32,000 nt of DNA from Methanoculleus sp. (GTDB taxonomy: Archaea; Halobacteriota; Methanomicrobia; Methanomicrobiales; Methanoculleaceae). Below the pieces are notes generated by a model, which was given only the letters and a program-made list of their open reading frames with translations, did no database searches and was not told the origin of the DNA. Positions within the stretch are counted from its first letter, which is position 1, and each line of letters opens with the position of its first letter. The stretch spans positions 1-32,000 of the forward strand of contig JASGMC010000010.1 in the NCBI GenBank assembly GCA_030156625.1, read 5' to 3'. The position numbers were made by a program, and so were the translations under genes. Of this stretch, positions 598 to 28,872 are shown piece by piece.

Positions 598-1566
598 ATG
601 AAAAAGATCGTTGTGCACGTCCGGGAAGACGGGCATGAAAAGATAGAAGAGGTCCTCGAAGGCCTCCATTATACGATATCGCTCGTTCAGGACATCTACG
701 AGATCACCATATATACGCCGGATGAGAACCTCGACGACCTGATCGAGAAGATCCAGGCAGTACTGGACCTGCGGTACAACGAGAACATGATCGAGGTATC
801 GACGCCGGAGTTCGTCATCTCGTCGCTCCTGAAACGTGCCGAGAAGAAGGTCGAAAAAAAGGAAGAGAAGACGCCTGTCGAGAAACTGCTCGACACGGTT
901 AAGGGTTACGGGGAACTCGATCTCGAAAAACTGTCGTTGACCTCCATCGCCGGGCTGGTAGCCCTCTCCGGCCTGCTCCTCGATAACCAGACGATCATCA
1001 TCGGGGCGATGCTCCTCTCCCCGATCATGGGCCCGATCTACGGGCTCGCCGTCTATGCCGCTCTTGGCAGGATCCAGAACGCCCTGCGGTGCCTCGGCGT
1101 GCTGGCGGCGCTGCTCCTGAGTGTCTTCGTCCTCTCCGCAGCCGCCACTTTTCTCATCAATATAGTCATGCCGCTCGCATTGACCGACGAGATCGCCATA
1201 CGCCTCGTGGTGAACCCCATCTACACGCTGATGGCGGTGCTCCTCGGGTTCGCAGCGGTGGTGGCGTTCAACCGGGGTACTTCGGAGGTGATTGCCGGCG
1301 TCGCCATCGCTGCGGCCATCATCCCGCCGACGGTAGTGACCGGCCTCGTCCTGGTGCTCCAGCCCATGAGCCTCTTCTCGTCCGCGCTGCTGGTGGCCGG
1401 GCAGATCGTCGGGCTGATAGCGGGCGCGCTCGTCGCCGTGACCCTGCTGAAGATCGAACCGCGGGATACCCGCGGTCAGACCATCGCAAAACGATACCTG
1501 AAATGGTCGGTCGTTCTGATCGTGCTGCTCTTCGCCCTGCTCCTCTGGCTCACAGCGCTCATGTAG
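598..1566 (+). CDS. DUF389 / TIGR00341-family integral membrane protein
   Basis: 322-aa ORF with a soluble N-terminal domain followed by multiple TM helices. The stretch LLDNQTIIIGAMLLSPIMGPIYG is characteristic of DUF389. Confidence 0.75.
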   Translation: MKKIVVHVREDGHEKIEEVLEGLHYTISLVQDIYEITIYTPDENLDDLIEKIQAVLDLRYNENMIEVSTPEFVISSLLKRAEKKVEKKEEKTPVEKLLDTVKGYGELDLEKLSLTSIAGLVALSGLLLDNQTIIIGAMLLSPIMGPIYGLAVYAALGRIQNALRCLGVLAALLLSVFVLSAAATFLINIVMPLALTDEIAIRLVVNPIYTLMAVLLGFAAVVAFNRGTSEVIAGVAIAAAIIPPTVVTGLVLVLQPMSLFSSALLVAGQIVGLIAGALVAVTLLKIEPRDTRGQTIAKRYLKWSVVLIVLLFALLLWLTALM

Positions 1567-1588
1567 ATGTAGCGGCGATGCCGCGGCG

Positions 1589-2239
1589 TCACTTTACTTC
1601 CACCCGCTCGCCGGTGACCATGTAGCAGACCTGCTCGGCGATATCGCAGGCGTGATCGGCACAGCGCTCCAGGTAGCGTGCGATCATCACGTAGTCGATA
1701 CACCGGGGGATGTTGCGCGGGTCCTCCATCATGTGCGTGAGGCTCTCCCGGAAGATGGTGTACCTGAGGTTGTCCACGACGTCGTCCCTGTGCGACATAC
1801 CCGCGATAGGTTCGATCCCCTCGATCCAGTAGGCTTTGAGGGCATCGGCGATCATGGCGCTGACAAGATCCTCCATGTGCGGCAGGCTCATCAGGTTCCC
1901 GAGATGCGGTTCCCCGGAAAGCTCTTCCGCAAGCTGCGCGATATCTTTCCCGTACCGGCCGATGCGGTAGAGCGCGAAGTTCATCCGGAGCGCACAGACG
2001 ATGGATCGGAGATCGCGTGCCATGGGCTGGTAGAGCGCGATGAGGCGGAGCGCCGCCTCTTCGATAGCATGGCTTTTATCAGCGAGCTCCACCCTCCGGG
2101 CATACACGCGCGCGGCAAGCCCGGGATCCCGGTTCTGCAGGGCGATCATCGAGTCGGAGAGCATGCCGGAGGCGAACGCCCCCTGCTCCCGGACCAGGTC
2201 CTTGAGGGCTTTGAGTTCCTCGTGAAATTTGTCCGTCAT
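1589..2239 (-). CDS. phoU: Phosphate transport system regulator PhoU
   Basis: 216 aa, two PhoU repeats. It lies immediately downstream of pstB on the same strand. C-terminal ERCADHACDIAE-type helix. Confidence 0.9.
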   Translation of the reverse strand: MTDKFHEELKALKDLVREQGAFASGMLSDSMIALQNRDPGLAARVYARRVELADKSHAIEEAALRLIALYQPMARDLRSIVCALRMNFALYRIGRYGKDIAQLAEELSGEPHLGNLMSLPHMEDLVSAMIADALKAYWIEGIEPIAGMSHRDDVVDNLRYTIFRESLTHMMEDPRNIPRCIDYVMIARYLERCADHACDIAEQVCYMVTGERVEVK

Positions 2240-2246
2240 GGATATC

Positions 2247-3011
<765 letters not shown>

Positions 3012-3017
3012 TGTGGG

Positions 3018-5117
3018 TCACCACTGAATTGATCTCTGGTAACGTGTCCGGATGACAATCGCGACCAGATAGATGGCCGCCACCAGCACGAGAAGCACCA
3101 GTGCCGTTCCGTACTGGTTCTCTCGTGCCCCGGGGACGTTGGTCGCCAGGATGAAGAGGTGGTAGGGAAGCGCCATCACCGGTTCCGTCACCGATGTGGG
3201 GAGGAACCGCCGGGAGAATACGACTGCGGTGAAGAGTATCGGCGCAGTCTCCCCGGCGGCCCGCCCGATGCCGAGGATCGTTCCGGTCAGGATTCCCGGC
3301 ACCGCCGGCGGGAGCACGACCTGCCGTATGGTCTGCCAGGGCGTCGCACCGAGAGCGAGGCTTCCCTCCCTGACGCTGTCCGGCACGCTCTTCAACGCCT
3401 CTTCGGTCGTCCGGATGATGGTGGGGAGGATCATCAGCCCCAGCGTGATCTGACCGGCAAGGAGAGACACCCCGAGATTAAGGTAGAGCACCAGGAACGC
3501 AAACCCGAAGAGGCCGAAGACGATGGACGGCGTGCCGCCCAGGAGGTCGACGCCGGCCCTGATGATCTCGGTGATGCGCCCTTCCCGGGTGTACTCGTGC
3601 AGGTAGATGGCGGCGCCGACGCCGATTGGGAGGGCGAAGAGGATGGCACCCCCGACCAGGTAGAGGGTCCCGAGGATGGCCGGGCCGATGCCTCCCGCCC
3701 GGCCGAGGTTGCTCGGCGAAGCGGTCAGGAACTCCCAGGAGAGCGCCGGTGCACCGTTGTAGACGATATCGAAGAGGATGACCCCGAGGACGAAGAGCAC
3801 GATGCCGGCGGCCGCATACAGGAACCCGAACGCGATCTTCTGTCCGGTCTTTGCAGAGACCCTGCGCCGGACGTATACCGCCCCGAACAGGGCAACGGCG
3901 ACGGCGGCGGCAACCAGAATATCCGTAGCCGCCGTAAGGGTCCCGAGCGCGCCGATGCCGAGAACAGCGTAGGCGTAAGGCTTTATCGTGCCGCACCCCC
4001 TCTTCCGGGCCACACGGGCCGCTGTCGCCGTGTGCTGCTCGCTGACCCGCGCGAGGATGCCCCGCGCAAAAAGGTTGACCGCGAGGGTGATCACGAGAAG
4101 TACGACCGCGACCCCGAAGAGCGCGTGGTAGTGAGCGCTGCCGACGGCGACCTCGCCCATCTCGATACCCAGCGTCCCGGTGAGCGTCCTGACCGGAGAT
4201 AGGACGTTCCAGAGCGGTTCGGGCACGACTCCCGCGTTGCCGGCGACCATGATCACCGCCATCGTCTCGCCGATCGCCCGTCCCATCCCGAGGATGATCG
4301 CGGCGGTGATGCCGGAGAGGGCTCCCGGGACCACGACCCCGGCGATCGTCTGCCAGTGCGTCGCCCCGAGCGCCAGGGACCCCTCCCGGTATCCGCGGGG
4401 CACGGCGCCGATCGCATCCTCCGAGACGCTGACGATCGTCGGGAGGGCCATGATACCGAGCAGGATGGAGGCGGCAAGCCAGGTCTCCCCGGACGCGACA
4501 TTAAAAGAGACGCGGATCCAGTCGGTCAGGATGACGAGACCGAAGAACCCGTAGACCACGGAGGGTATCCCCGCCAGGAGCTCGACGGCGGGTTTCATGA
4601 CCGCGCGAGCCCCGGGCGGCGCAAGTTCGGCGATGAAGACGGCGACCGCGATCCCGAGCGGGACGGCAAGAGCCATCGCACCGAGCGTAACGAGGAGCGT
4701 GCCGACGATCAGCGGGAAGATGCCGTATGCGGGAGCCGCTCCCGTCGGGTTCCAGACGTCGCCGGCAAGGAAGTTTGAGACGCCGACCTGCTCGAAGATC
4801 GGGTAACCGTTCTGGATCAGGAAGAAGAGGATGAAGAAGAGGGCAACGACGGCGAAGATGGCCGTGCAGAACCAGAATGCCCGGATAGCCTCCTCACGGA
4901 TCTGCCGGGTCCTCTTCCAGAGGCGAAAAAAGCCGTCCATGACCGGCTCCCCGGGCACCTGCGCGGTCCCCGACGGGGTATGAACGACAGGGCGATCGGA
5001 TCCCATCTCTCCGGTGAGCGGCGTGCTCCCGCCCTGCAGAGGGTTCGTGGTGCCTGCCCGGGCTTCAGCTTCTTCCTGGTGCGACCGTTCCCCGGGTGCT
5101 GCGCCGATCCGGGCCAT
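3018..5117 (-). CDS. pstCA: Fused phosphate ABC transporter permease (PstC-like N half, PstA-like C half)
   Basis: Single 699-aa ORF with two MetI-type permease halves, each carrying an EAA-like loop (GSLALGATHWQT and GSLALGATPWQT). The first ~59 aa are non-membrane, so the start is ambiguous among ATGs at 5117, 5006 and 4940. Confidence 0.85.
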   Translation of the reverse strand: MARIGAAPGERSHQEEAEARAGTTNPLQGGSTPLTGEMGSDRPVVHTPSGTAQVPGEPVMDGFFRLWKRTRQIREEAIRAFWFCTAIFAVVALFFILFFLIQNGYPIFEQVGVSNFLAGDVWNPTGAAPAYGIFPLIVGTLLVTLGAMALAVPLGIAVAVFIAELAPPGARAVMKPAVELLAGIPSVVYGFFGLVILTDWIRVSFNVASGETWLAASILLGIMALPTIVSVSEDAIGAVPRGYREGSLALGATHWQTIAGVVVPGALSGITAAIILGMGRAIGETMAVIMVAGNAGVVPEPLWNVLSPVRTLTGTLGIEMGEVAVGSAHYHALFGVAVVLLVITLAVNLFARGILARVSEQHTATAARVARKRGCGTIKPYAYAVLGIGALGTLTAATDILVAAAVAVALFGAVYVRRRVSAKTGQKIAFGFLYAAAGIVLFVLGVILFDIVYNGAPALSWEFLTASPSNLGRAGGIGPAILGTLYLVGGAILFALPIGVGAAIYLHEYTREGRITEIIRAGVDLLGGTPSIVFGLFGFAFLVLYLNLGVSLLAGQITLGLMILPTIIRTTEEALKSVPDSVREGSLALGATPWQTIRQVVLPPAVPGILTGTILGIGRAAGETAPILFTAVVFSRRFLPTSVTEPVMALPYHLFILATNVPGARENQYGTALVLLVLVAAIYLVAIVIRTRYQRSIQW

Positions 5118-5255
5118 ATGCTTATTGCGTGAGTATATCGGGCGGATAGGCGTTCCCGAAGGAGACTATATGAGTATATTTATTCACCATAAACTCCGGT
5201 GGTGTATATACAACACAGAATGCATATATCCTACCGGCACCAACGCGTACTATCC
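5118..5255. promoter_or_regulatory. Divergent AT-rich promoter/operator region between pstCA and the AbrB-PhoU regulator gene
   Basis: Four TATAT-containing boxes. TGAGTATAT is repeated at 5130-5138 and 5171-5179. gtgtatatac lies near 5202-5211. The box catatatc (5223-5230) lies ~26-33 nt upstream of the ATG at 5256. Confidence 0.5.
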
Positions 5256-6263
5256 ATGGAGATCAGAAAAGTTCAGATCACCGGAGGCTCGTCGTACATC
5301 GTATCCCTGCCAAAACAGTGGATAAAGTCCGCGAATATCCAGAAAAACGACCCTGTAGGGCTGGTTGTGCAGCCCGACGGTTCGCTCCTGGTCACCCCGA
5401 AGATCAGCGGGGAGTCGGTCCAGAGGGTTAGAGTCTTCGAGGTCGGTGCCGCGACGGATCGCACCTACCTGCTCCGCCTCCTCGTCGGAGCGTACATCGC
5501 CGGGTTCACGGCTATCCGCCTTGAGTCGAAAGAAAGGCTGCCGCCGTTCGTACTGCAACTGGTCCGGGAGTTCACGCAGATGGCTATCGGGCAGGAAGTG
5601 GTCGGCGAGACGGACTCCTCGATAACGATCAAGGATCTCCTCAACCCCGTGGAGATGCCGTTCGATAACACCATCAAAAGGATGCATCTCTTAGCACGGA
5701 GCATGCAGCAGGACGCGATGGCCGCGATAAGGGGGCATGATGCAACTCTTGCCGGAGACGTCGTCATGCGGGACACGGAAGTGGACCGGCTGCACTGGCT
5801 GGTTGCGCGGCAGGATAACCTCATCATGAGCGACGCCACGCTCTCGCGCCGGATGGGCATCCCGGTAAACCAGGCGGCGTACTACTTCCAGGTCAGCCGG
5901 ATCATCGAACGGATAGCCGACCACGCCACCCGGGTGGCGCATAACGCCCTCGCCCTGATCGACCGCGAGGTCGAGGCGGCGACGCTCGACCTCATGGACG
6001 AGGCGAGCGCACTTGCCCTGCAGATCTTCTCCTGGAGCATGGAAGCGTTCCATACGGGAGACACCAGGAAGGCGAACGCAACGCTGCAGAGGGTGCGCGA
6101 CCTTGAGGAGAATACCCGGGAGATCGATACCCGGGTGCTCCGGTTCGAGGCGGTGGTGGCGATCCCGATGAGACAGATCGCAGACAGCATCCGGCGGATC
6201 GGAGAATATTCCGGCGACATCTCCGAGAGCATCATCAACTATACCGTCGGGCTGGAAGCCTGA
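5256..6263 (+). CDS. Phosphate-uptake regulator-like protein: N-terminal AbrB/SpoVT DNA-binding domain fused to PhoU repeats
   Basis: MEIRKVQITGGSSYIVSLPKQWIK is an AbrB/SpoVT swapped-hairpin motif. The rest has PhoU-type helical repeats (RIIERIADHATRVA, RRIGEYSGDISE). The start was moved to the ATG at 5256 inside the track ORF 5199..6263. Confidence 0.8.
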   Translation: MEIRKVQITGGSSYIVSLPKQWIKSANIQKNDPVGLVVQPDGSLLVTPKISGESVQRVRVFEVGAATDRTYLLRLLVGAYIAGFTAIRLESKERLPPFVLQLVREFTQMAIGQEVVGETDSSITIKDLLNPVEMPFDNTIKRMHLLARSMQQDAMAAIRGHDATLAGDVVMRDTEVDRLHWLVARQDNLIMSDATLSRRMGIPVNQAAYYFQVSRIIERIADHATRVAHNALALIDREVEAATLDLMDEASALALQIFSWSMEAFHTGDTRKANATLQRVRDLEENTREIDTRVLRFEAVVAIPMRQIADSIRRIGEYSGDISESIINYTVGLEA

Positions 6264-19049: not shown

Positions 19050-19162
19050 ACCCACCTGTACGCATCTCCGGGAAATATGCACACCGGTGCGGATACAGCG
19101 GAACAACAAACCCTATCCCGCCCCCCACCCAACCGTACCACTACATCAGGTCTTGTGGCGCA

Positions 19163-19645
19163 ATGGATACCAAACACAGCGTTCTGGAGAAATACTTCGG
19201 GTATACGTCATTCCTCCCCCACCAGGAAGAGATCATCGATTCCGTGCTCGCGGGGACGGACGTCCTCGCCGTCATGGCGACCGGGGGCGGCAAGTCCCTC
19301 TGCTACCAGCTCCCGGCCCTCGTCTTCGGCGGGCTTACGGTCGTCGTCTCGCCGCTCATCGCCCTGATGAAGGACCAGGTCGACGGCTTGCGGGCAAACG
19401 GCATTCCGGCGGCGACGATCAACAGTTCGCTCGGGCAGGGGGAGCGGAGGATCATCGAGCGGGTGATCCTCGAAGGCCGCATCCGGGTCCTCTACGTCTC
19501 GCCGGAACGGGCCGTGCAGCCGTTCTTCCTCTCGCTCCTTGCACAGGCGGATGTCCGGCTCATTGCCATCGACGAGGCGCACTGTATCTCCATGTGGGGG
19601 CACAAGGCACAGCCAACTGTGCTATCTCACATCGATCCGTTATAA
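19163..19645 (+). pseudogene. recQ: recQ 5' fragment (helicase motifs I to II), truncated by an insertion after codon WGH
   Basis: FLPHQEEII, Walker A MATGGGKSLCYQLPAL, motif Ia VVVSPLIALMKDQV and motif II DEAHCISMWGH. RecQ similarity ends at 19605; 13 unrelated codons then run to a stop. Confidence 0.9.
19594..19605. repeat. Left copy of the 12-bp direct repeat GTGGGGGCACAA at the recQ/insert junction
   Basis: Exact 12-mer, identical to 28505-28516. Confidence 0.9.
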
Positions 19646-19734
19646 ACCGCGCAGGGCAAAAAAGTAGTCGCATACCCGGGGTTGTAGCGGAAATATGAGG
19701 TCTCCGGTTCACCGACAACGGAGCAGACGGGATG

Positions 19735-19980
19735 AGGGACGACATCCCGCCCGACGAGCTCAACCGGGCGCCCGAGCCCGGGCTGAACTTTGGCTTCCCC
19801 TACTGCCACGCCAGCACCATTTCCGACGCCGAGTTCGGGGCCGGGTCCCATCCCTGCAGGGATTCTACGGGAGGTGCTCGCACCTACCCGGCGGCAATGG
19901 AAGGCTATTCGGTCTCGCCAGCGGTGGACGATCCCGGGCGGAGGGGGAGAAGGTCATCCGGCCGGTGAAGCGGTGGTGGT
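19735..19980 (+). pseudogene. Remnant of a PQQ-dependent sugar (glucose/sorbosone) dehydrogenase C-terminus, frameshifted
   Basis: One frame reads DELNRAPEPGLNFGFPYCH (compare DELN...G.NYGWP). Another frame reads GFYGR..LPGGNGRLFGLASGG...GEKVIRPV (compare G..FY.G..FP....FVA.HGSWNR...G.KV.RV). There is no N-terminal part. Confidence 0.4.
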
Positions 19981-20358
19981 GAGGGGACAATCCCATCTGT
20001 CCCGTGGTAAGGCAAAAAACGGCGAGGTCCAGGAATGCTCTGCATAACCGCGGGTGTACCGGAGAGTAAGATCCGTTCGCGTGTAACGTTCCGGTGCCTC
20101 GGCAGTTCGATGCCGACCGCCCCATTCCATGGCGGGAGTGCTGGCAGGAGTGCCGCGACCCGGGAATGGCGCTACTGATCACGCGAGAATGGATTATTCT
20201 CGGTGTAATTTGTTTTTCCAGTACCATTGGTATTCTTCAGTGCGATTAATCAGTAGATGTATATATCAGACCATGGAGATCATACTTCCTTGGTCGAACA
20301 GCCGCGAGAGCATTCGTAGGGTGCCCGATCGATAATTCACGAATTCAATGAGAAGTGA

Positions 20359-20397
20359 GTGATGTTCGTCCGCTGTCGAGGGTGGGACGAACATCAC
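20359..20397. promoter_or_regulatory. Perfect 13-bp inverted repeat (stem-loop or operator candidate) upstream of the large surface-protein gene
   Basis: gtgatgttcgtcc (20359-20371), a 13-nt loop, then ggacgaacatcac (20385-20397). It lies 86 nt upstream of ATG 20483. Confidence 0.5.
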
Positions 20398-20482
20398 GAC
20401 AGCCCGCAGGCAAAGCACGTTGGCTCTCTTCATGCTTAAGGATGTCCTTGTTTTTGCCTCCGGTTCGAAGGGAGATTACCAA

Positions 20483-23400
20483 ATGAGCACGAAACGTATG
20501 GAGAGAGTCTTTCCTCTTCTCATGACGGTGCTGATGATAGCCACGGCGTTCATTCCTGCCGTGAGCGCCGCAGAACCGAATACATCGAATGTGGATACCA
20601 CGTCCTGGATAAATACCTCCGCGGAGATTGAGAGTGCCGGAGAACCCGGTGCGGATACCTCACCGGCGACAGACAGCACCCGCGTGGTCACCGGTTCCGG
20701 CAAGATCCGGCTCAAAACCTACGACCCGGAGACCAGGACCATCCGGATCACGGATGAGGGCAGATCCGCCGCCGATGGAGACCTTGAGATCCGGCTGGTG
20801 AACACCACACCGGATCTCGGCACCTTCACCGAGATCTTCGAGATCACCGCGCACAGCACGATCGCCCTCGACGAATCAGAGGACTTCCGGGCCACATGGG
20901 CGCTCCACAACGGGGAGGAAAACGTCACCCGGGCCGAGTGGTTCGTCTGGGAGAACCGGTTGCATACCGTCAAGATCCCGATCATTGAGTACCGGAACGT
21001 CACCCTTGAGATTAATACATCTGAAAATCGTACTTTTGAGAATGTTACCCGTGGAGAAACTCTTCCTGAAACCGCCACGGTCCGGGAACCTTATATCGCC
21101 GGCACCGAGACCCGGGAGCGGTACTGGTATGAGTGGGTGCCGTTTGACCCGGCGGGGCAGACGCTCAACGCCGAAGAGGCGCGGACCTTCAAGGTCGTCT
21201 ACACCAAGCCCGCCGAGATCGGGCAGGTCGATATCAACACCGCCCCGGTCTTCCGGGGCGTCGCGTGCCCGGAGATGACCTGGTGGAGCACTGCCTGGAC
21301 CGCGCGGGTGCCGATCACAATCATCAACCCGCCAGCGGTCGATAACTACTCTCACTGTGAGGTCGTCTCGTTCCTTCCCGGCATGCAGAGCGACTTCGAT
21401 GACGTCCGGTTCGCGACCGACGACGGCACCGTTCTCGACTACTGGAAGGAGTCCTATACTGCATCCGACTCGGCCGTCATCTGGGTCAATCTCCCCGCCG
21501 GTGTGACCTTGATCTGGATGTACTACGGGAATGCGGCAGCCACCGATACCGGCAGCAGAGATAACGCTTACATCCTCTACGACGACTTCAACGGCCCGGA
21601 TCTCGATACGACGATCTGGACGGACACACATCCCGACGGCCATTACATCTCCAATGGTTGGATATACGATGTCCGAACTCAGGAAACCGGCATTCGTGGC
21701 GTTCTGGTATCCAATGATAATGTGATCGCCAACGGCGAGCCGGTGATCGTAGAGATGCATATCCACGCCGATGGCCTCGCCAGTCCCGGCTACTGCTCCG
21801 GGTATCTTCCTATCTTTATTGACCACATCGACCACGACTCCGCGATCCGGAACGGTCTGCTCTGGTACAAGCAATCGTCAAACTGGTGCCGGTACGTCCT
21901 TGTGAACGGTGTTGCATCATGGCGGCCGGGAGCATCGCGTGGCCTCGCGGTTGGCGGCGACTACTACAACACCTGGATCATCACACCGTCCAGTCAGACC
22001 CATACTGTCAGTGGGAGCGCCTCCTACACCGATGTATTTGCTGGCACGACCGGAATCTCAAACCATCGGATGGTCATTCTGGGCGGCGATAACTCGGTTT
22101 CCGGCCGAGTCATGCGGATGGACTGGATCCGGGCGCGGAAGTACGTCGAAACCGAACCGACATTCGCCTACGGTACACCGGAGTTCGAACCGCCAGTGGC
22201 GAACTTCACGGCCTCGCCAATCACAGGCGCCGCCCCGCTCACCGTCCAGTTCACCGACACATCGACCGGCAGCCCGACCTCCTGGGCGTGGGACTTCACA
22301 AACGACGGATCATGGGACAGTTATGCGCAGAATCCGTCCTACACCTACAACAACCCCGGCACGTACTCGGTCAAACTCAGGGCCACGAACGCCGACGGGG
22401 ACGATGAGGAGGTCAAGACCGATGTCATCACGGTGACTGCACCGATCTACTATGTCTATGCTGAAGCGGGAGATAGTGGAACATCAGTATACAACATGGC
22501 AAAAGGATTCTGGGAGACGATCAAAGACGCCCAAAGCGGATGGACCACGTGGAGAGACTGGCGTAACGAAGATGACATTATTAAAAGCGATTCCTCTCGG
22601 GAAGGCCACTGGAGGAAAACAGCGGCAAATCCTCCAGGCCATGCGGATCAATGGGTCGAAAGAGCGGATTTTGCATACTTTACGGGTCATGGGTTTCCCA
22701 ATGGTTTCCTTTTTGAGGAGCCAGATGAAGATTCCAATTTAACCGAAGCACACGCGCAAAACATATCGCTGGGGTCCGGGCGCACCAAATGGGTTGTACT
22801 TGATTCATGCTCAAGTCTCAATGAAAGCAGCCAGACAAACTGGCATGCGTCCTTTAATGGACTGCGGATGCTGCTGGGCTGGGATTCGCCAACAACTCCG
22901 ACGAATATACCTATCGGTCGCGGAGAGATGTTTGCAAAACTAATGATGGGGCAATATCCAGATCCTACCGCTTCCGAACTCTCAATATTCGAAGCTTGGA
23001 CATGGGCAGCAGTGTATACGTGGGAAGGTTACTCCCCTGGAGAGGACATATATACTGCGATCATATACGACACAAATTGCTTGAATGATATGCTCCCCGG
23101 ATGGGGCGGGTATTCAACCTCTCCAAGCGGTTTCCTCGAATATAACAAGACACTTGTAAAAAATGTGAATGAGGGAAAAGATGTTGAAAAATCGACTATG
23201 CTGGATTCAACTAATGGCAGATATTCGATACATACTTCTGTGCCCACTACATCAGGTAAACTCATGACGTATATATCTGAAAAACCAGAGTATACGGAGG
23301 AGTGGGTAAGTTCGCTGGCAAGGAACCTCGGAATGTCCGGGAAGAAAAGAGAATCGGAAAAGGCATATTACGCTGATGAAACCGAAGAAGATGAGTTCTA

Positions 23401-23998
23401 TTTCGTCGTGCAAAAGGATGCCAAAATCATTGCATTTAAAAAATATCATCAGCAATCGGGAGAACCCCTTTCAGCCGAAACAGCGACTGAATCAGTACAT
23501 GAGTTCTTGGAAAATGCCGGCCTCATGTTCCCCGATGCAACAGACGCCAATATCGGCTATAATACCGGTGAAAGTATTTCTCCTTCGGGAGAACGTGTCC
23601 AAACTTGGAAACAGATCGTAGTAACTTTCCCCCGCGAACTGAACGGCCTGAGGGTATGGGATTCACAAATCCTTGCCGATGTGGATCCACAAGGTAATGT
23701 CGTCAGATTATTTATCAGCTGGCCGGATTATAAGCCACATAAAGAGGTGTCACTGAAGACACCTGAACAAGCCTTTGAAGAGTTCCAGAAGGAATTCGCC
23801 AGCATTCATGGGGAAAAAGCGGAAAAAGTTATCGTAACCGATGTTTCGCTCGGGTATTCCTCATTGCCGATCTCTGGAACACAACGGTGCCTTCAGCCGA
23901 CATACGTCTTCGAGGGGTCCGTTCAACGGGGAAGTTTGACCGATGAGTTCGAACCTATCATTATTGAAGCAAGCGGTGAAGGGGTTGATATTGCATGA
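20483..23998 (+). CDS. Large secreted mosaic surface protein: signal peptide, unknown N-domain, DUF2341, ConA/LamG-like, PKD, domain A (putative Cys-peptidase-like), module B
   Basis: GGAG lies 8 nt upstream of ATG 20483. Signal peptide: MSTKRMERVFPLLMTVLMIATAFIPAVSA. DUF2341-like: WWSTAWTARVPITI...FDDVRFATDDGTVLDYW...VIWVNLP...MYYGN. PKD: APLTVQFTDTSTGSPTSWAWDF...YTYNNPGTYSVKLRATN. Domain A: FTGHG (His codon 22688-22690) and VVLDSCSSLNES (Cys codon 22808-22810). The C-terminal ~260 aa are paralogous to the next gene. Confidence 0.85.
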   Translation: MSTKRMERVFPLLMTVLMIATAFIPAVSAAEPNTSNVDTTSWINTSAEIESAGEPGADTSPATDSTRVVTGSGKIRLKTYDPETRTIRITDEGRSAADGDLEIRLVNTTPDLGTFTEIFEITAHSTIALDESEDFRATWALHNGEENVTRAEWFVWENRLHTVKIPIIEYRNVTLEINTSENRTFENVTRGETLPETATVREPYIAGTETRERYWYEWVPFDPAGQTLNAEEARTFKVVYTKPAEIGQVDINTAPVFRGVACPEMTWWSTAWTARVPITIINPPAVDNYSHCEVVSFLPGMQSDFDDVRFATDDGTVLDYWKESYTASDSAVIWVNLPAGVTLIWMYYGNAAATDTGSRDNAYILYDDFNGPDLDTTIWTDTHPDGHYISNGWIYDVRTQETGIRGVLVSNDNVIANGEPVIVEMHIHADGLASPGYCSGYLPIFIDHIDHDSAIRNGLLWYKQSSNWCRYVLVNGVASWRPGASRGLAVGGDYYNTWIITPSSQTHTVSGSASYTDVFAGTTGISNHRMVILGGDNSVSGRVMRMDWIRARKYVETEPTFAYGTPEFEPPVANFTASPITGAAPLTVQFTDTSTGSPTSWAWDFTNDGSWDSYAQNPSYTYNNPGTYSVKLRATNADGDDEEVKTDVITVTAPIYYVYAEAGDSGTSVYNMAKGFWETIKDAQSGWTTWRDWRNEDDIIKSDSSREGHWRKTAANPPGHADQWVERADFAYFTGHGFPNGFLFEEPDEDSNLTEAHAQNISLGSGRTKWVVLDSCSSLNESSQTNWHASFNGLRMLLGWDSPTTPTNIPIGRGEMFAKLMMGQYPDPTASELSIFEAWTWAAVYTWEGYSPGEDIYTAIIYDTNCLNDMLPGWGGYSTSPSGFLEYNKTLVKNVNEGKDVEKSTMLDSTNGRYSIHTSVPTTSGKLMTYISEKPEYTEEWVSSLARNLGMSGKKRESEKAYYADETEEDEFYFVVQKDAKIIAFKKYHQQSGEPLSAETATESVHEFLENAGLMFPDATDANIGYNTGESISPSGERVQTWKQIVVTFPRELNGLRVWDSQILADVDPQGNVVRLFISWPDYKPHKEVSLKTPEQAFEEFQKEFASIHGEKAEKVIVTDVSLGYSSLPISGTQRCLQPTYVFEGSVQRGSLTDEFEPIIIEASGEGVDIA

Positions 23999-25047
23999 CC
24001 GGAAAAGATGAGAACTGTCGGAAGATGAGAGCACCTGTGGTAAAAGGTTCGATATCAACATTTTTTGTCCTCTGTCTTCTGCTTACCACCTTTATCGTTT
24101 CAGCAGGATGCACATCGCAGACCTCATCGGCAGTCCCTTTGCCGGACGTCACGCCTCACGATAATTCCCAAGAATACAGAGATCTCAATCCAGAGGAGAA
24201 TAACACCCTGGAGAACAGCAGCTCGCACGATCCGCGGTTTTTTAACGCAAGAGAGGGCATGTATTCGATAAATGCTTCGTTCCCCGATGTTTCCAAGAAA
24301 ATCATGGTGTACACCCCCGAAAAACCGGAGTATACAAAGGAATGGGTGAGTTCGCTGGCAAAGAAATTCGGAATGTCCGGGAAGGTAAGGGAGTCGGAAA
24401 AAGCATATTACGCCGATGAAGCCGAAACAGATGACTATTATTTCGTTGTGCTGAAGGATGATCGAAGTATCAGCTTTAAAAGTTATCATCAGCAGTCAGG
24501 AGACCCTCCTTCACCCGAAAACGCAACAAAATCGGTGAAGGAATTCCTGGAAAGCGCCGGCCTCGCGTTCCCCGGTGCAACAGAAGCCGGGATCAACTAT
24601 GATACCGGGGGAAGTATTTCGTCTTCAGGGGAGTATGTCCAGAACTTTAAACAGATCGTAGTAACGTTCAACCGTGAGTTGAACGGCATCAGCGTATTGG
24701 GTTCGAGTATCATGGCCCGTGTAGATGCGCAGGGAAATATTATCGAATTATTTTTCCACTGGCCGGACTACAAGCCTTACAAGGAAGTTTCGCTGAAATC
24801 CCCCGAACAGGCCTTTGCCGAGTACTTGGAGTACCAGAAAGATTCGCTGTATATCACAGGAGCCCCGATGAAGCCGGAGAAAGTAGTGGTAACCAGGGTC
24901 TCACTGTTTTACCGATCAACGGGGAAATATGTCGAACCGATATATGTATTCCAGGGATACGGGCAGCAGGGGGAAGTGACACAGCCCTTCGCCTCGGTGT
25001 ATGTCGTGGCAACGGATGAGGGATTGGAAAGATGGCTTGTGTACTGA
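23995..25047 (+). CDS. Stand-alone module-B lipoprotein (paralog of the C-terminus of the preceding protein)
   Basis: Its start overlaps the upstream stop (ATGA at 23995-23998); ATG 24025 is an alternative. Lipobox FIVSAGC. Residues ~90-350 align with the last ~260 aa of the 1192-aa ORF. Some stretches show high nucleotide identity by eye (24321-24470 vs 23279-23430). Confidence 0.8.
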   Translation: MTGKDENCRKMRAPVVKGSISTFFVLCLLLTTFIVSAGCTSQTSSAVPLPDVTPHDNSQEYRDLNPEENNTLENSSSHDPRFFNAREGMYSINASFPDVSKKIMVYTPEKPEYTKEWVSSLAKKFGMSGKVRESEKAYYADEAETDDYYFVVLKDDRSISFKSYHQQSGDPPSPENATKSVKEFLESAGLAFPGATEAGINYDTGGSISSSGEYVQNFKQIVVTFNRELNGISVLGSSIMARVDAQGNIIELFFHWPDYKPYKEVSLKSPEQAFAEYLEYQKDSLYITGAPMKPEKVVVTRVSLFYRSTGKYVEPIYVFQGYGQQGEVTQPFASVYVVATDEGLERWLVY

Positions 25048-25382
25048 AAGAGCGTTCCGATGAACTCAAAAGAGCACCGGAAAGGGTTGACAAGTTCATT
25101 CGCTACGGGGAACCGATATACTACATGCACAAGATTCCCGTACACGCCGGATACAGAGGCAGTTATCTCCAAGCCAGTTGAAAGAACCGGGTATTCAAGG
25201 GACGAATTCTTTGCTGGCAAGTCCCCGGTACCTGCGGGGGAAAGCGTGCGGATGTACCCATCCGTCACCTTTCCCGATGGCGGTTTTCTTGAGCGCAAAG
25301 CGACGTTCACCACCGTCCTGAGCCGTTCCGTACCGGTACGATATCGGGCTGATCGACTGGACGACCGAGGAGCGGATCCACG

Positions 25383-26840
25383 ATGGAGACAGAACCGACA
25401 GCGAGAACGAGATCAGGACCTGCTGGCACACAGATTCGGCGACACCAGCACCAGCACCAGCACCAGCACCAACACCGCCCGCACCCGACACACATCTACA
25501 GCAGCGCCGGCACCTACACGGTAACGCTGAACGTCAGCGATGCTTGTGGGTACGATATCAGCAGCCAGACCCTTATCACCGTCACCTCGGACCAGACCGT
25601 AATGAATCCGGCCCTCTCCTTTGCATCGCCAGACACCCTGATCCTGCGCGAAGGGAAGAATTTCGTCTCGACGCCCTGCTACCTCACATCCGGACACGAT
25701 ACAGCGGGTACGGTCTTCCCGGACTTCGGTACCGATGTCCGGGGATACAGGTTCGAAAACGGCCGGACGGTAATCCTGACGGCGCAGGATGAAATTCGGT
25801 CGCTTGAAGGATACATAATCTACTCGGACGGGTACCACGAGATTTCCCTTCAGTTCGAAGATCCCCAGGTACATCCGACAGTTACAAAAGACCTCGACGA
25901 AGGCTGGAATCTCGTCGGCTTCTATGGTTTGAGCCAGGAATGTGCACGGGACACGCTCATTTCCCTCAGGAACGTGTGGTCGGAGGCAAAGGGCTGGGAT
26001 GCCGGGTCGCAGGAATACGAGACCTCCTTTATCAGGGATTCGACCGGCGATACCAGCGACCAGCGCCTGATGTTTCCGGGGAAGGCTTACCTGGTGTACA
26101 TGACGGAAGAGGGAACTCTGTTCCGCTCGTACTACCTGACGTATTCCTTCTGCGCCGAATGGGTGGGCGACTATCACGGCATGCAGACTCCTCTCTTCAG
26201 CGCCGAGGAAGAGGCCGAAGGCTTCTACGACACGCTTGAAGGGTCGAGTTCATGGACCGGCCAGTTCATCAACGGCAACGACGCCGCGATGGAACGGCAC
26301 TGGAAGGACCCGGCCTTCGGCGGGATTGATTCGAACCACATCGACAACGCACACCTGGCCTTCTTCGTAGGCCACGGGTGGGAGGGCGGGTTCGTCTTCG
26401 GGACCGCCGCCGACGATTACGAGCTGAACTACAGCGAGGCGCGCTGGGGCAACACGAAGACCGACTGGATTATTCTCGGATCGTGCAGCACCCTGAATGA
26501 ATCCACGCGGGAGCACTTGGAGGATGCCTTCGAGGGGCTCCATTCCATATGCGGCTTCGATACCATCGGAGGCACTCACCCGGATATGGGGTGGTATTTC
26601 GCCCAGCAACTGATGGATGGTGAAACCATCTGGGACGCATGGTCTGCGGCGACAGATCAGTACGTGTTCCCGAACGATGGCAGTCTACGGTCAGCGGTTC
26701 TCGCCGCGGACATTGACGGTGACTTGAGCACGCATGATTGTCTTGATGACCATATTTACGGTTACGGATCGTCGATTAATCCGCCCGGTGATCCACCGGC
26801 ATTTCAATACGTGACAAAGCCATGTATACGGGAGATTTAA
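25383..26840 (+). CDS. Second domain-A protein (PKD C-terminal half, unknown beta-rich region, domain A); probably 5'-degraded, with no signal peptide in frame
   Basis: HIYSSAGTYTVTLNVSD is the end of a PKD domain. Domain A: FFVGHG (His codon 26373-26375) and WIILGSCSTLNES (Cys codon 26484-26486). The matching PKD segment FGDTSTS lies upstream in a different frame. Confidence 0.6.
   Translation: METEPTARTRSGPAGTQIRRHQHQHQHQHQHRPHPTHIYSSAGTYTVTLNVSDACGYDISSQTLITVTSDQTVMNPALSFASPDTLILREGKNFVSTPCYLTSGHDTAGTVFPDFGTDVRGYRFENGRTVILTAQDEIRSLEGYIIYSDGYHEISLQFEDPQVHPTVTKDLDEGWNLVGFYGLSQECARDTLISLRNVWSEAKGWDAGSQEYETSFIRDSTGDTSDQRLMFPGKAYLVYMTEEGTLFRSYYLTYSFCAEWVGDYHGMQTPLFSAEEEAEGFYDTLEGSSSWTGQFINGNDAAMERHWKDPAFGGIDSNHIDNAHLAFFVGHGWEGGFVFGTAADDYELNYSEARWGNTKTDWIILGSCSTLNESTREHLEDAFEGLHSICGFDTIGGTHPDMGWYFAQQLMDGETIWDAWSAATDQYVFPNDGSLRSAVLAADIDGDLSTHDCLDDHIYGYGSSINPPGDPPAFQYVTKPCIREI
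25443..25476. repeat. Hexanucleotide microsatellite (CACCAG)4-CACCAA-CACC
   Basis: Read directly. It encodes HQHQ.., TSTS.. or PAPA.. depending on frame. Confidence 0.9.
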
Positions 26841-27791
26841 ATGACAACAAAACAAGTTGTAATCGGAATTGCTGCCCTCTTGCTAATTATTGCCGGGACA
26901 GCACTGGTGCCAGCGGTGTCTCCGCAGGATGATGAAGGTTCAAACAGGGGAATCGAGATCGTCGGACCATACGGCGTGCAAAGTGTCTCTGAGATCGCTC
27001 TCGGTACCGCCCTCACGCGGTACCCCGAACAGGCAATGGTCTACAGGACGGTCGATACCATCGTATCGAAGGACGACGCGCTGAAGATAGCGGAGAAATT
27101 TGGAGTGATCGGACCACTTGAGGAAGATACACTGTCGTATTACATCAAAGACGATCCCTATACGTTTGATATTGAGAAGGAAGGCGGTTGTCTATCCTAT
27201 ACATGGGAAGGGCGGTGGAACGAAGGCGAAGGATACCGGGATTTCCCAGAACACCTCCCGACCGACGAGGAGTGCCGGAAGATCGCCGAAACGTTCCTCG
27301 CCTCTCAATGCTCTCATACCCGAGGGAGCTGTGTATTCTGGTGTTGCACATGGGAAGGGGATTTTTTCGAACCGCTCGGGAGGGACACCCATCGTCACGT
27401 ACGAAGATCGTGACGTCCTCTTCTCCGACACCCTGAGCGGCCTTCCCGTGGCCGGAAGCGGGATCCGGGTCACCATCGGCGGGGGCGGTGACATCCTTGA
27501 GGTCACCAAACGCTGGCGCGACGCCGAACCTTACAAGGAGTTCTCTATCCTCTCCCCAGAGGAAGCGGTTGAGGAGCTCAAACAGACCGGGGTCGTCACC
27601 GCGGTGAGTTCACCGAAGAAGGCGGTCGTCGACGAGGCCAAGCTCTGCTACTATGCAACCCCGCCGGCACCGAGCAGCCGTACCTCAAACCGACCTACTA
27701 CTTCCGCGGCACCGTAGAGGGAGAAAAGGAGGCCGGGACCTTCTACCAGTACGTTCCGGCGGTCCCGGAACTCGGGAAGGGGTTGTACTGA
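26841..27791 (+). pseudogene. Third module-B gene with an N-terminal TM anchor, interrupted by two opposite frameshifts
   Basis: TAAATG junction with the upstream gene, and GGAGA 6 nt upstream. Module-B similarity runs in frame 0 to ~27305, frame +1 to ~27670 (LNALIPEGAVY...ILEVTKRWRDAEPYKEFSILSPEEAVEEL), then frame 0 again (EQPYLKPTYYFRGT... stop 27789-27791). Confidence 0.7.
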
Positions 27792-27819
27792 TCCCCTCTC
27801 TCCGTTTTGCAAGACGCTG

Positions 27820-28011
27820 ATGCCCATGATGAACCAGATCGCAACCGGACTCGTCATTCTCGTGCTGCTCGTTGCCGGGACGGCACTGATACCGGTGGAA
27901 TATCCGCCGGACGATGAAGGCACAAGCGGGGGAATAGTGCTGTCGAAGACAAAAATCGGGATAATCCTGGTGGTCGCCATTGCGCTCTCTGCAACCATCT
28001 TCATGGAGTGA
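27820..28011 (+). CDS. Small two-TM protein, or N-terminal relic of a fourth module-B gene
   Basis: AGTALIPVEYPPDDEGTSGGIV parallels AGTALVPAVSPQDDEGSNRGIEIV at the N-terminus of the 26841 gene. Only 63 aa. Confidence 0.4.
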   Translation: MPMMNQIATGLVILVLLVAGTALIPVEYPPDDEGTSGGIVLSKTKIGIILVVAIALSATIFME

Positions 28012-28319
28012 GAGAGTTCAAGGATTTCTTCACGCGTCAGCGACATTTTCCTTGAATAACAAATATTTGCTCATTATATGTAGATCTATTCTTAATCTGC
28101 TCTCTAATTCTTGATTAAGGAACAATTGATACCCAGGTTAAAAAATTATGCCATAGTTGAACAGTTACCATCGGTTATCATAAGCGGGTCAGATATTTAT
28201 CAGAATGGGTCGACAGGACAGCATCTGGTCGTTATCAGTTACTATGATGCAGATTTTCCCATGGTTATCGCAGATACTTATGTGTAACTCCCATTTAGTT
28301 CGCGATATGATTGACGATG

Positions 28320-28504
28320 GAGAACGAGATAATTCGCGCCGGTTCAATGTTCACCGACACCTCCGATGCCTCGCCAACGAAATGTTACTGGACTTCGGTG
28401 ACGGTACGAACTCGACCATGCAGAACACAACGCATACTTACGAATCGCCCGGTAGTTACAACGTCACGTCCCGTACGTGGAACGACCACGGGAGCGATAC
28501 GGTG
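28320..28504 (+). pseudogene. PKD-domain remnant with a 1-nt frameshift, cut off by the right insert junction
   Basis: Frame 0 reads MFTDTSDASPTKCYW, then frame +2 reads DFGDGTNSTMQNTTHTYESPGSYNVTSRTWNDHGSDTVVG. tactggacttcggtgacggt lacks one G relative to tac tgg gac ttc ggt gac ggt. Confidence 0.7.
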
Positions 28505-28872
28505 GTGGGGGCACAACTTCCGGCCGGAGCCGGGCGGTGCTCGCGGGCAATCTTGTGGTGCCGCTCACCGAGCCGCGTCCGGAGGGCATCGTCGCGCCGG
28601 AGACCGGGGAGGACTACGACGAGGCGCTCTTCCTCCGGCTCCGCCGCCTCCGGAAGGTCGTTGCCGACCTCGATCGCGTGCCGCCGTTCGTCGTCTTCCA
28701 CGACCGGAGCCTCAAGGAGATGGCGAAGATCTACCCGGGCACCGGCGTCGCCCTTCTCCGGGTCTACGGGGTCAGCGAGGCGAAGCTGAAGCGTTATGGC
28801 AGGAGGTTCCTCGACGCCATCGATAAGCATTGCGCCGAACAGGGGATCGGACCGGAGCAACGGAGCGGGTGA
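28505..28872 (+). pseudogene. recQ: recQ 3' remnant: right 12-bp repeat plus WGHNFRPE (motif II continuation), then an internal deletion joining out of frame to the C-terminal/HRDC region
   Basis: 28506-28529 reads W G H N F R P E. From ~28534, in the +1 frame: AVLAGNLVVPLTE...YDEALFLRLRRLRKVVADLDRVPPFVVFHDRSLKEMAKIYP...VYGVSEAKLKRYGRRFLDAI, which is an HRDC domain. Confidence 0.85.

Follow-up and report, generated by a model that had tools for sequence, protein, structure and literature searches.

How did one archaeal gene come to encode a surface protein whose two halves differ so sharply in composition and in relatives? The question is posed by a stretch of Methanoculleus sp. DNA, 32,000 nucleotides (nt) long and called the window below (contig JASGMC010000010.1 of assembly GCA_030156625.1, positions 1 to 32,000). 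Its open reading frame (ORF) at 20483-23998 on the + strand, 3516 nt long, encodes a 1171-residue product, P0001, and the identical product has been called in public assemblies. An earlier note, made from the DNA letters, had read this protein as a mosaic in an unfamiliar order and its gene as a fusion of segments with separate histories. We find that the gene is a recent in-frame chimera, in which a resident GC-rich N-terminal module (N-module) runs into an imported AT-rich cassette. Our full explanation, which we regard as likely, combines this chimera with a displaced older unit and with a secreted clan-CD peptidase, predicted in function, under the control of PepSY-like modules. The parts of P0001 and of the gene that follows it are these:

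20483 to 20569, + strand: Sec-type signal peptide, residues 1-29, read from the translation as ...PAVSA followed by AE.
20570 to 21382, + strand: N-terminal domain, residues 30-300, rich in N-x-S/T sequons, with a GC content at third codon positions (GC3) of 0.76; first part of the resident N-module.
21392 to 21622, + strand: DUF2341 (Pfam PF10102), residues 304-380, 62 bits against a gathering cut-off of 23.4.
21623 to 22189, + strand: continuation of the N-module, residues 381-569, strongly conserved across homologues; a 'LamG-like' label for it is unverified.
22190 to 22435, + strand: PKD domain, residues 570-651; PKD_4 (PF18911) 53.7 bits against 27, PKD (PF00801) 45.5 against 23.5.
22436 to 23179, + strand: domain A, imported, GC3 0.47; DUF6345 (PF19872) at residues 702-879, 79.6 bits against 26.9.
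23180 to 23998, + strand: module B, residues 900-1171 and stop, low-GC and imported; three tandem PepSY/YycH-YycI-like alpha+beta units.
23995 to 25047, + strand: P0002, a stand-alone module B in the imported block, with a lipobox-like signal VSAGC and a GC3 of 0.56.

The contrast between a GC-rich 5' half and an AT-rich 3' half, which the earlier note had pointed out, resolves into a sharp break. GC3 is 0.753 over codons 1-651 and 0.454 over codons 652-1171, and the maximum-likelihood change point lies after codon 651, at nt 22436 (support interval 22418-22463), with a log-likelihood ratio of 55.3, where 300 permutations gave at most 7.5. Judged against 973 long ORFs of the same genome (GC3 0.803 +/- 0.092), the 5' part is typical (z = -0.55) and its PKD domain has a resident-type composition (GC3 0.84), whereas the 3' part falls below 99% of genome ORFs (z = -3.8). 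Genome GC is 0.625, and 1-kb windows at or below 0.47 make up 1.2% of the genome. The imported block spans ~22427-25215, ~2.8 kb, encodes domain A, module B and P0002, and is bounded as follows:

22418 to 22463, + strand: left recombination junction, where the ITVTAP codons close the PKD domain, placed by the GC3 change point and a step in DNA identity.
25213 to 25225, + strand: right end of the low-GC block, with a change point at nt 25213; homology to a related locus (L007) stops at ~25216-25225.

The two halves also have separate relatives. A search of 5.8 billion protein clusters returned full-length matches to P0001 itself and to P0300, which differs by 1 residue; in the comparison of full-length with partial relatives that the earlier note had proposed, only the halves proved to be shared, and no ordinary full-length conserved protein appeared. 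In that search residues 1 to ~570-594 are 55-68% identical to Methanoculleus-type DUF2341 proteins with unrelated C-termini, and N-module homologues end in Big_2, TSP3, PEGA or CarboxypepD_reg repeats. Residues 570-1168 are instead 46-51% identical to PKD-A-B proteins (P0016, P0020, P0271). The 3' half has its closest relative in P0122, encoded at a 9.4-kb locus of ~45% GC in a Methanomicrobiales metagenome-assembled genome (MAG); amino acid identity to it is ~55% in the PKD domain and 79-88% in domain A, and synonymous divergence (dS) is 0.63 for A-B and saturated for PKD. At the DNA level, window 22341-23430 is 81% identical to L005, a Methanomicrobiales MAG locus (GC ~0.45), with identity jumping from ~55-60% to ~90% at the ITVTAP codons, at ~nt 22427. 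Farther along, 23603-25002 (the end of module B and P0002) is collinear with L009, a second contig of the MAG that holds L005, and 23962-25216 is 86% identical to L007/L008, in a match that stops where GC climbs again.

The 5' half of P0001, by comparison, is 94% identical in nucleotides to contig C25 of the same-genus genome G004. The type-1 A-B cassette, the kind found in P0001, was not found in G004 or in three other relatives, and the type-1 A domain was detected in none of 37 same-genus genomes and in a single one of 200 from the order. Ratios of nonsynonymous to synonymous substitution (dN/dS) of 0.17-0.30 across A-B and P0002 indicate purifying selection on both. Relative to G004, the N-module (window 20483-22192, compared with C25) has a dN/dS of 0.71 at a dS of 0.07, and the type-2 DUF6345 described below one of 0.16 at a dS of 0.21; this contrast suggests relaxed or diversifying selection on the N-module, or gene conversion among N-module paralogues.

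Different hosts carry the A-B cassette as an island, and not at the same locus. On L004, a high-GC Methanomicrobiales contig, a low-GC A-B cassette (1287-5439, GC 0.45) lies between the genes for malate dehydrogenase and dihydroorotate dehydrogenase, which adjoin each other in the genome studied here (C59:35789-37722). L003 has a similar low-GC cassette beside a malate dehydrogenase gene, on a contig that does not include the far flank. On L007 (213-9070), the gene for P0275, the closest homologue of P0002 (86% nt identity), precedes a pair of RHS-repeat/YD-shell genes, together with a transposase fragment, by ~2 kb.

Two simpler accounts of the break have to be weighed here. An ordinary vertically inherited protein, its low-GC 3' half the product of a local mutational or expression-related bias, would fit the low GC of A-B cassettes in other high-GC hosts, where it could be a property of the gene; but no full-length homologue occurs beyond the strain cluster, the 81-90% nucleotide identity to a gene of a low-GC genome begins exactly at the GC3 break, and the 37 same-genus genomes did not yield the cassette, so that we consider this account highly improbable. 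A metagenomic misjoin of two organisms at conserved PKD sequence is a natural concern, as the source genome is a MAG (82% complete, 130 contigs) and the left junction falls in a conserved repeat-type domain. The identical 3516-nt gene, however, is present on four separately assembled contigs (MAG GCA_030156165.1 and Logan SRR23823810, SRR19237654 and SRR34857968), three of which (the MAG and two Logan contigs) carry both exact junction segments, the fourth ending before the right junction. Identical chimeric DNA in independent assemblies argues against misassembly; in addition, high-GC DNA on both sides of the low-GC block would demand two misjoins, and the reading frame stays open through the junction. 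An artefact is therefore extremely improbable. The view of the earlier note that the gene joins segments of separate history is borne out along four independent lines: the composition, the half-only homologues, the identity step toward a donor-like sequence and the state of the sister genome.

What does the resident half contribute? The N-terminus of P0001 is kept across N-module homologues. The ~270-residue N-domain that the earlier note could not recognise is equally unfamiliar to Pfam, with zero matches in residues 31-300 at E <= 10, and its wealth of sequons is real: 9 in these residues, against 2.7 +/- 1.4 in shuffled sequences. The DUF2341 domain, found in 16 of 16 aligned N-module homologues, starts slightly 3' of the ~21281 given earlier, and the PKD domain lies almost exactly where it had been expected (~22190-22440); in a profile search of the PDB the PKD region matches the PKD domains of ColH. 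The label of a LamG- or ConA-like region for residues 381-569 fared worse: Pfam gave no match there at E <= 1, either in P0001 or across 15 of its homologues, the PDB profile search gave nothing in that region, and hhalign comparison with two Laminin_G_3-carrying proteins returned a probability below 2%. As to the architecture that had seemed unfamiliar, the full layout does occur only in the strain cluster of P0001, but the pairing of a DUF2341 module with DUF6345 is found elsewhere as well, the other (type-2) DUF6345 subfamily being joined to it in P0012, P0019 and G004. Archaeal DUF2341 proteins of type IV pilus loci have been proposed as PilY-like adhesins (PMC4858521). P0001 would be secreted and probably glycosylated, its adhesin-like N-module taking the putative peptidase to an extracellular target.

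The imported half begins with domain A, which we predict to be a clan-CD cysteine peptidase. Folded alone with AlphaFold2 from a 28-sequence alignment, it reaches a predicted local distance difference test score (pLDDT) of 94.9, and the top seven Foldseek matches in the PDB are SAVED-CHAT (four chains), separase, the C11 peptidase iotapain and caspase-4, with procaspase-7 ranking tenth and E-values down to 1e-4. Clan CD is defined by a catalytic His, usually in a His-Gly pair, after core strand beta3 and a Cys after beta4 (PMC4357240). In the model, His736-Gly737 follows strand 79-83 and Cys776 follows strand 119-123, ~40 residues later. Conservation and model strands single out a candidate dyad:

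22688 to 22690, + strand: His736.
22808 to 22810, + strand: Cys776.

Among 103 family proteins the His is present in 98 of 99 aligned, the Gly in 97 of 99 and the Cys in 97 of 97. The sole member with Glu in place of the His (YFSGEG) is P0271, a 641-residue JGI metagenome protein that keeps the Cys and may be an inactive variant. The predicted assignment of DUF6345 to a caspase-like fold with a defined His/Cys dyad is new. In the literature we found DUF6345 in one paper, where it is named in a proteome table only, and no paper that pairs PepSY with clan CD. A sequence search of the PDB with a profile of A and B gave PKD matches only.

Module B, the 272 C-terminal residues of P0001, matches no Pfam family above threshold, but its predicted structure is telling. 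In a joint model of A and B (16-sequence alignment) it has a pLDDT of ~75-92, and its Foldseek matches are 5coz (E 1.5e-9), YycI (2o3o, 2e-7), YycH (9e-6) and the C-terminal domain of YpeB (5boi, 1.4e-5), together with the propeptides of fungalysin (1.2e-4) and vibriolysin; from these matches to YycI, YycH, YpeB and propeptide folds we conclude that module B is a tandem PepSY-like array. The PepSY model of Pfam (PF03413) gives no match in module B, and the FTP match in P0001 reaches 13.2 bits against a cut-off of 21, which homologues exceed (P0020 23.2, P0123 25.3, P0126 23.0 and P0128 29.4 bits). P0002, whose start overlaps the stop of P0001 as ATGA, is 58% identical to the module B of P0001. 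A third kind of module-B-like gene lies elsewhere in the genome (C46:5030-5938, - strand); its product is 25% identical and lipoprotein-like, and the gene has no DUF6345 neighbour and is flanked by two genes for secreted proteins of no known family.

Domain A and module B recur together. Of 150 representatives taken at 50% identity, 26 combine A and B in a single chain, with either one first, 47 have A only and 77 B only. Where A and B are encoded separately, B comes immediately after A, and B genes sometimes form arrays of up to five. The A-B units come joined to PKD repeats, to RCC1-like propellers or to the DUF2341 module. At L037 (G016:C3:290403-295859) five module-B paralogues stand in tandem behind one type-2 DUF6345 gene, and G004 (C48) and G013 (C246) have one A and two B genes each; such tandem arrays look like partner or 'immunity-like' genes. 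DUF6345 is systematically coupled to PepSY-like modules, and this coupling is new; we found no paper describing the pairing. Fusion, adjacency and arrays of A and B lead us to predict a protease-regulator pair. The fused module B would be an inhibitor or chaperone within the same molecule, or else a docking partner, and stand-alone B proteins anchored in the membrane would bind the peptidase or restrain it at the surface of the producer.

The DNA downstream of the imported block may hold what the cassette displaced. Two features follow it:

25383 to 26840, + strand: orf25383, probable displaced older unit, comprising a (CACCAG)n microsatellite, a PKD 3' half, a 'mid' domain and a type-2 DUF6345 (26157-26801).
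26841 to 27717, + strand: type-2 module-B gene with a transmembrane anchor, frameshifted, its ORFs 26841-27413 and 27118-27717 overlapping.

The type-2 DUF6345 of orf25383 scores 160.6 bits in Pfam and is accompanied by the PKD tail, of which the 3' half alone is detectable, with no 5' half. The product of orf25383 lacks a signal peptide; its closest homologues (66-69% identical, ~509 residues) carry one of their own. Both frames of the frameshifted B gene match module B of P0016 and P0020, and its orthologue in G004 is intact in one frame. There, on contig C48, N-module residues 510-567 run in frame into a type-2 DUF6345, followed by a transmembrane-anchored B gene, and C48 is 88.5% identical in nucleotides to window 26133-27630; the upstream region and N-module of the window have their counterpart, at 94% identity, on C25. 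P0012 (L006), in turn, is collinear with window 20364-22182 and with window 25892-26127, that is, with the 5' half of P0001 and with orf25383.

Several smaller features surround this unit. The hexanucleotide microsatellite (CACCAG)n, at 25443-25476 in the degraded 5' end of orf25383, encodes HQ, TS or PA repeats depending on frame. The 'mid' domain (window 25593-26130, residues ~80-250 of orf25383) has no Pfam match and recurs at 31-41% identity in dozens of proteins of 800-2500 residues across the genus, which makes it a widespread and uncharacterised module of surface proteins. Farther downstream come more relics, a 63-residue ORF (27820-28011) that resembles the transmembrane-anchored N-terminal part of the type-2 B gene and a PKD fragment (28205-28516; PKD_4, 37.7 bits). 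A perfect 12-bp direct repeat, GTGGGGGCACAA, at 19594-19605 and 28505-28516, brackets an island of ~19594-28516, which is flanked by an N-terminal fragment of a DEAD-box helicase (19163-19645) and an HRDC fragment (28477-28872). G004 has no stretch equal to window 19126-19674, which holds the DEAD fragment, and has both flanks of that stretch; the history is thus more complex than a simple insertion. A plain split gene, with orf25383 as the old C-terminus of the N-module protein, was considered and is only partly upheld, given the stand-alone homologues with signal peptides, the lack of PKD and 'mid' domains in G004 and the missing 5' PKD half.

We suggest that cassette capture with displacement of an older unit is the most economical reading of this locus. 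A ~2.8-kb block from a lower-GC lineage would have recombined at the last codons of the resident PKD domain, at ~nt 22427-22436, and so captured in frame the resident N-module with its signal peptide, glycosylation-prone N-domain, DUF2341-containing domain and PKD spacer. Before this event the N-module was probably joined to a type-2 DUF6345 and followed by a transmembrane-anchored B gene, as the sister genome and the collinear homologues suggest; the insertion would then have pushed the type-2 pair downstream, where orf25383 presumably lost its signal peptide and the B gene its frame.

A number of observations weigh against parts of this reading. The donor-like sequences reach only 81-86% identity, so the true donor is unsampled, and the similar A-B cassettes that form low-GC islands in other high-GC hosts (L003, L004) mean that composition marks a mobile cassette, not one named donor. 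Contigs C25 and C48 of G004 both end inside the repeated N-module, and their join is accordingly inferred; G004 also lacks the PKD and 'mid' domains, which leaves the exact ancestral architecture uncertain, and the closest homologues of orf25383 stand alone as genes rather than being fused to an N-module. On the side of function, the Foldseek TM-scores (template modelling scores) of domain A are modest, at 0.30-0.46, and the fold assignment draws on Foldseek matches and on the positions of strands along the chain; domain A is poorly modelled in the joint A-B prediction (pLDDT 25-65), so that no A-B interface can be read from it. Peptidase activity and an interaction of A with B, or with a separate B protein, are predictions.

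Should the function then be read otherwise? The locus might be akin to polymorphic toxins, with a conserved delivery or adhesion N-module, exchangeable effector cassettes with protective B partners, and older cassettes orphaned downstream. Like those systems, in which cassette recombination is a hallmark (Zhang et al. 2012, PMC3482391), it has a conserved N-terminal region and C-terminal cassettes exchanged by recombination: the N-module is conserved while the C-termini vary, composition and identity break sharply at the junction, a displaced A2/B3 pair lies downstream together with the B-like N-terminal relic at 27820-28011 and the PKD relic at 28205-28516, up to five B paralogues stand behind one DUF6345 gene (G016:C3), and a P0002 homologue is encoded near RHS-repeat genes. 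Caspase-like domains serve in polymorphic toxins as releasing peptidases or as toxins (Zhang et al. 2012, PMC3482391). Toxicity and immunity would nevertheless be conjectural here, drawn by analogy. B and A often share one chain, an unusual arrangement for an immunity protein that better fits a propeptide; many of the alternative C-termini of the N-module are structural repeats (TSP3, PEGA, Big_2) and not toxins; the window holds no known secretion or delivery apparatus; and the polymorphic-toxin survey has 0 mentions of PepSY-type immunity proteins (PMC3482391). On balance we consider a toxin-like locus unlikely. If it were one, archaea would have their own counterpart of polymorphic toxin/immunity loci, the window having caught it just after a cassette swap. 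We extend the analogy only as a doubtful suggestion, that DUF6345 and module B could form an archaeal (and bacterial) extracellular effector-protector system whose cassettes move between lineages and displace each other in frame. In it, exchangeable adhesin-like N-modules would deliver a secreted caspase-like peptidase, and PepSY-like proteins, whether fused, adjacent or in arrays, would neutralise the enzyme at the surface of its producer; were such inter-strain conflict real, it would offer a route into methanogen antagonism or self-recognition, a poorly known field.

It is also conceivable, though quite improbable in our view, that domain A processes itself, resembles a transpeptidase or binds without catalysis, as part of a structural surface protein, with B serving structure or anchoring. 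Transamidases and autoprocessing domains do belong to clan CD (PMC4357240), Glu replaces the His in P0271, and YycH/YycI-type modules are regulators, not protease inhibitors; but the presence of His-Gly and Cys in ~98% of the 103 members argues for catalysis, and the FTP/PepSY-type fold is best known from protease propeptides (matches 4k90_B and 3nqz_A). A secreted peptidase with a PepSY-like partner, borne on a captured N-module, is the reading we prefer.

The locus is of interest on two counts. It records an unusually clean, base-resolved lateral domain replacement in an archaeal surface-protein gene, in which one can still see the junction, the donor-like sequence, the state of the sister genome and the older domain that was displaced. 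It also provides a testable, predicted function for two uncharacterised modules, DUF6345 as a peptidase and module B as its partner.

How does P0001 compare with known systems? Methanoculleus-type DUF2341 surface proteins (WP_214020831.1, P0008-P0015) share its ~570 N-terminal residues at 55-91% identity, but continue into repeats where P0001 continues into PKD, caspase-like and PepSY-like parts; unlike the DUF2341 proteins of archaeal type IV pilus loci, it has no pilus genes in its window. With clan CD (caspases of C14, clostripain of C11, separase of C50, and CHAT) domain A shares a predicted alpha/beta fold and the near-invariant His-Gly...Cys; it differs in matching DUF6345 alone and no MEROPS-type Pfam family by sequence, and in being a secreted domain that is preceded by PKD and coupled to a PepSY-like array. 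The units of module B have their best structural matches in the PepSY/FTP propeptides of M4 and M36 peptidases and in YycH/YycI/YpeB arrays, yet they are attached to a Cys-peptidase-like domain rather than a metallopeptidase, and usually lie C-terminal to A or make up a membrane-anchored protein of their own, at times in tandem arrays. Loci of polymorphic toxins (CdiA-CT/CdiI, Rhs) are similar in their conserved N-terminal part, swapped C-terminal cassette of other composition with a partner gene, older truncated cassettes that remain downstream, and caspase-like components (PMC3482391); here, by contrast, the partner module also occurs in one chain with the effector-like domain, the host is an archaeon and secretion is apparently Sec-dependent only. 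DUF2341 surface proteins, PKD domains, the clan-CD fold and PepSY-like arrays are all known kinds; new, besides the fold assignment of DUF6345 and its coupling to PepSY-like modules, is a base-resolved, in-frame cassette swap.

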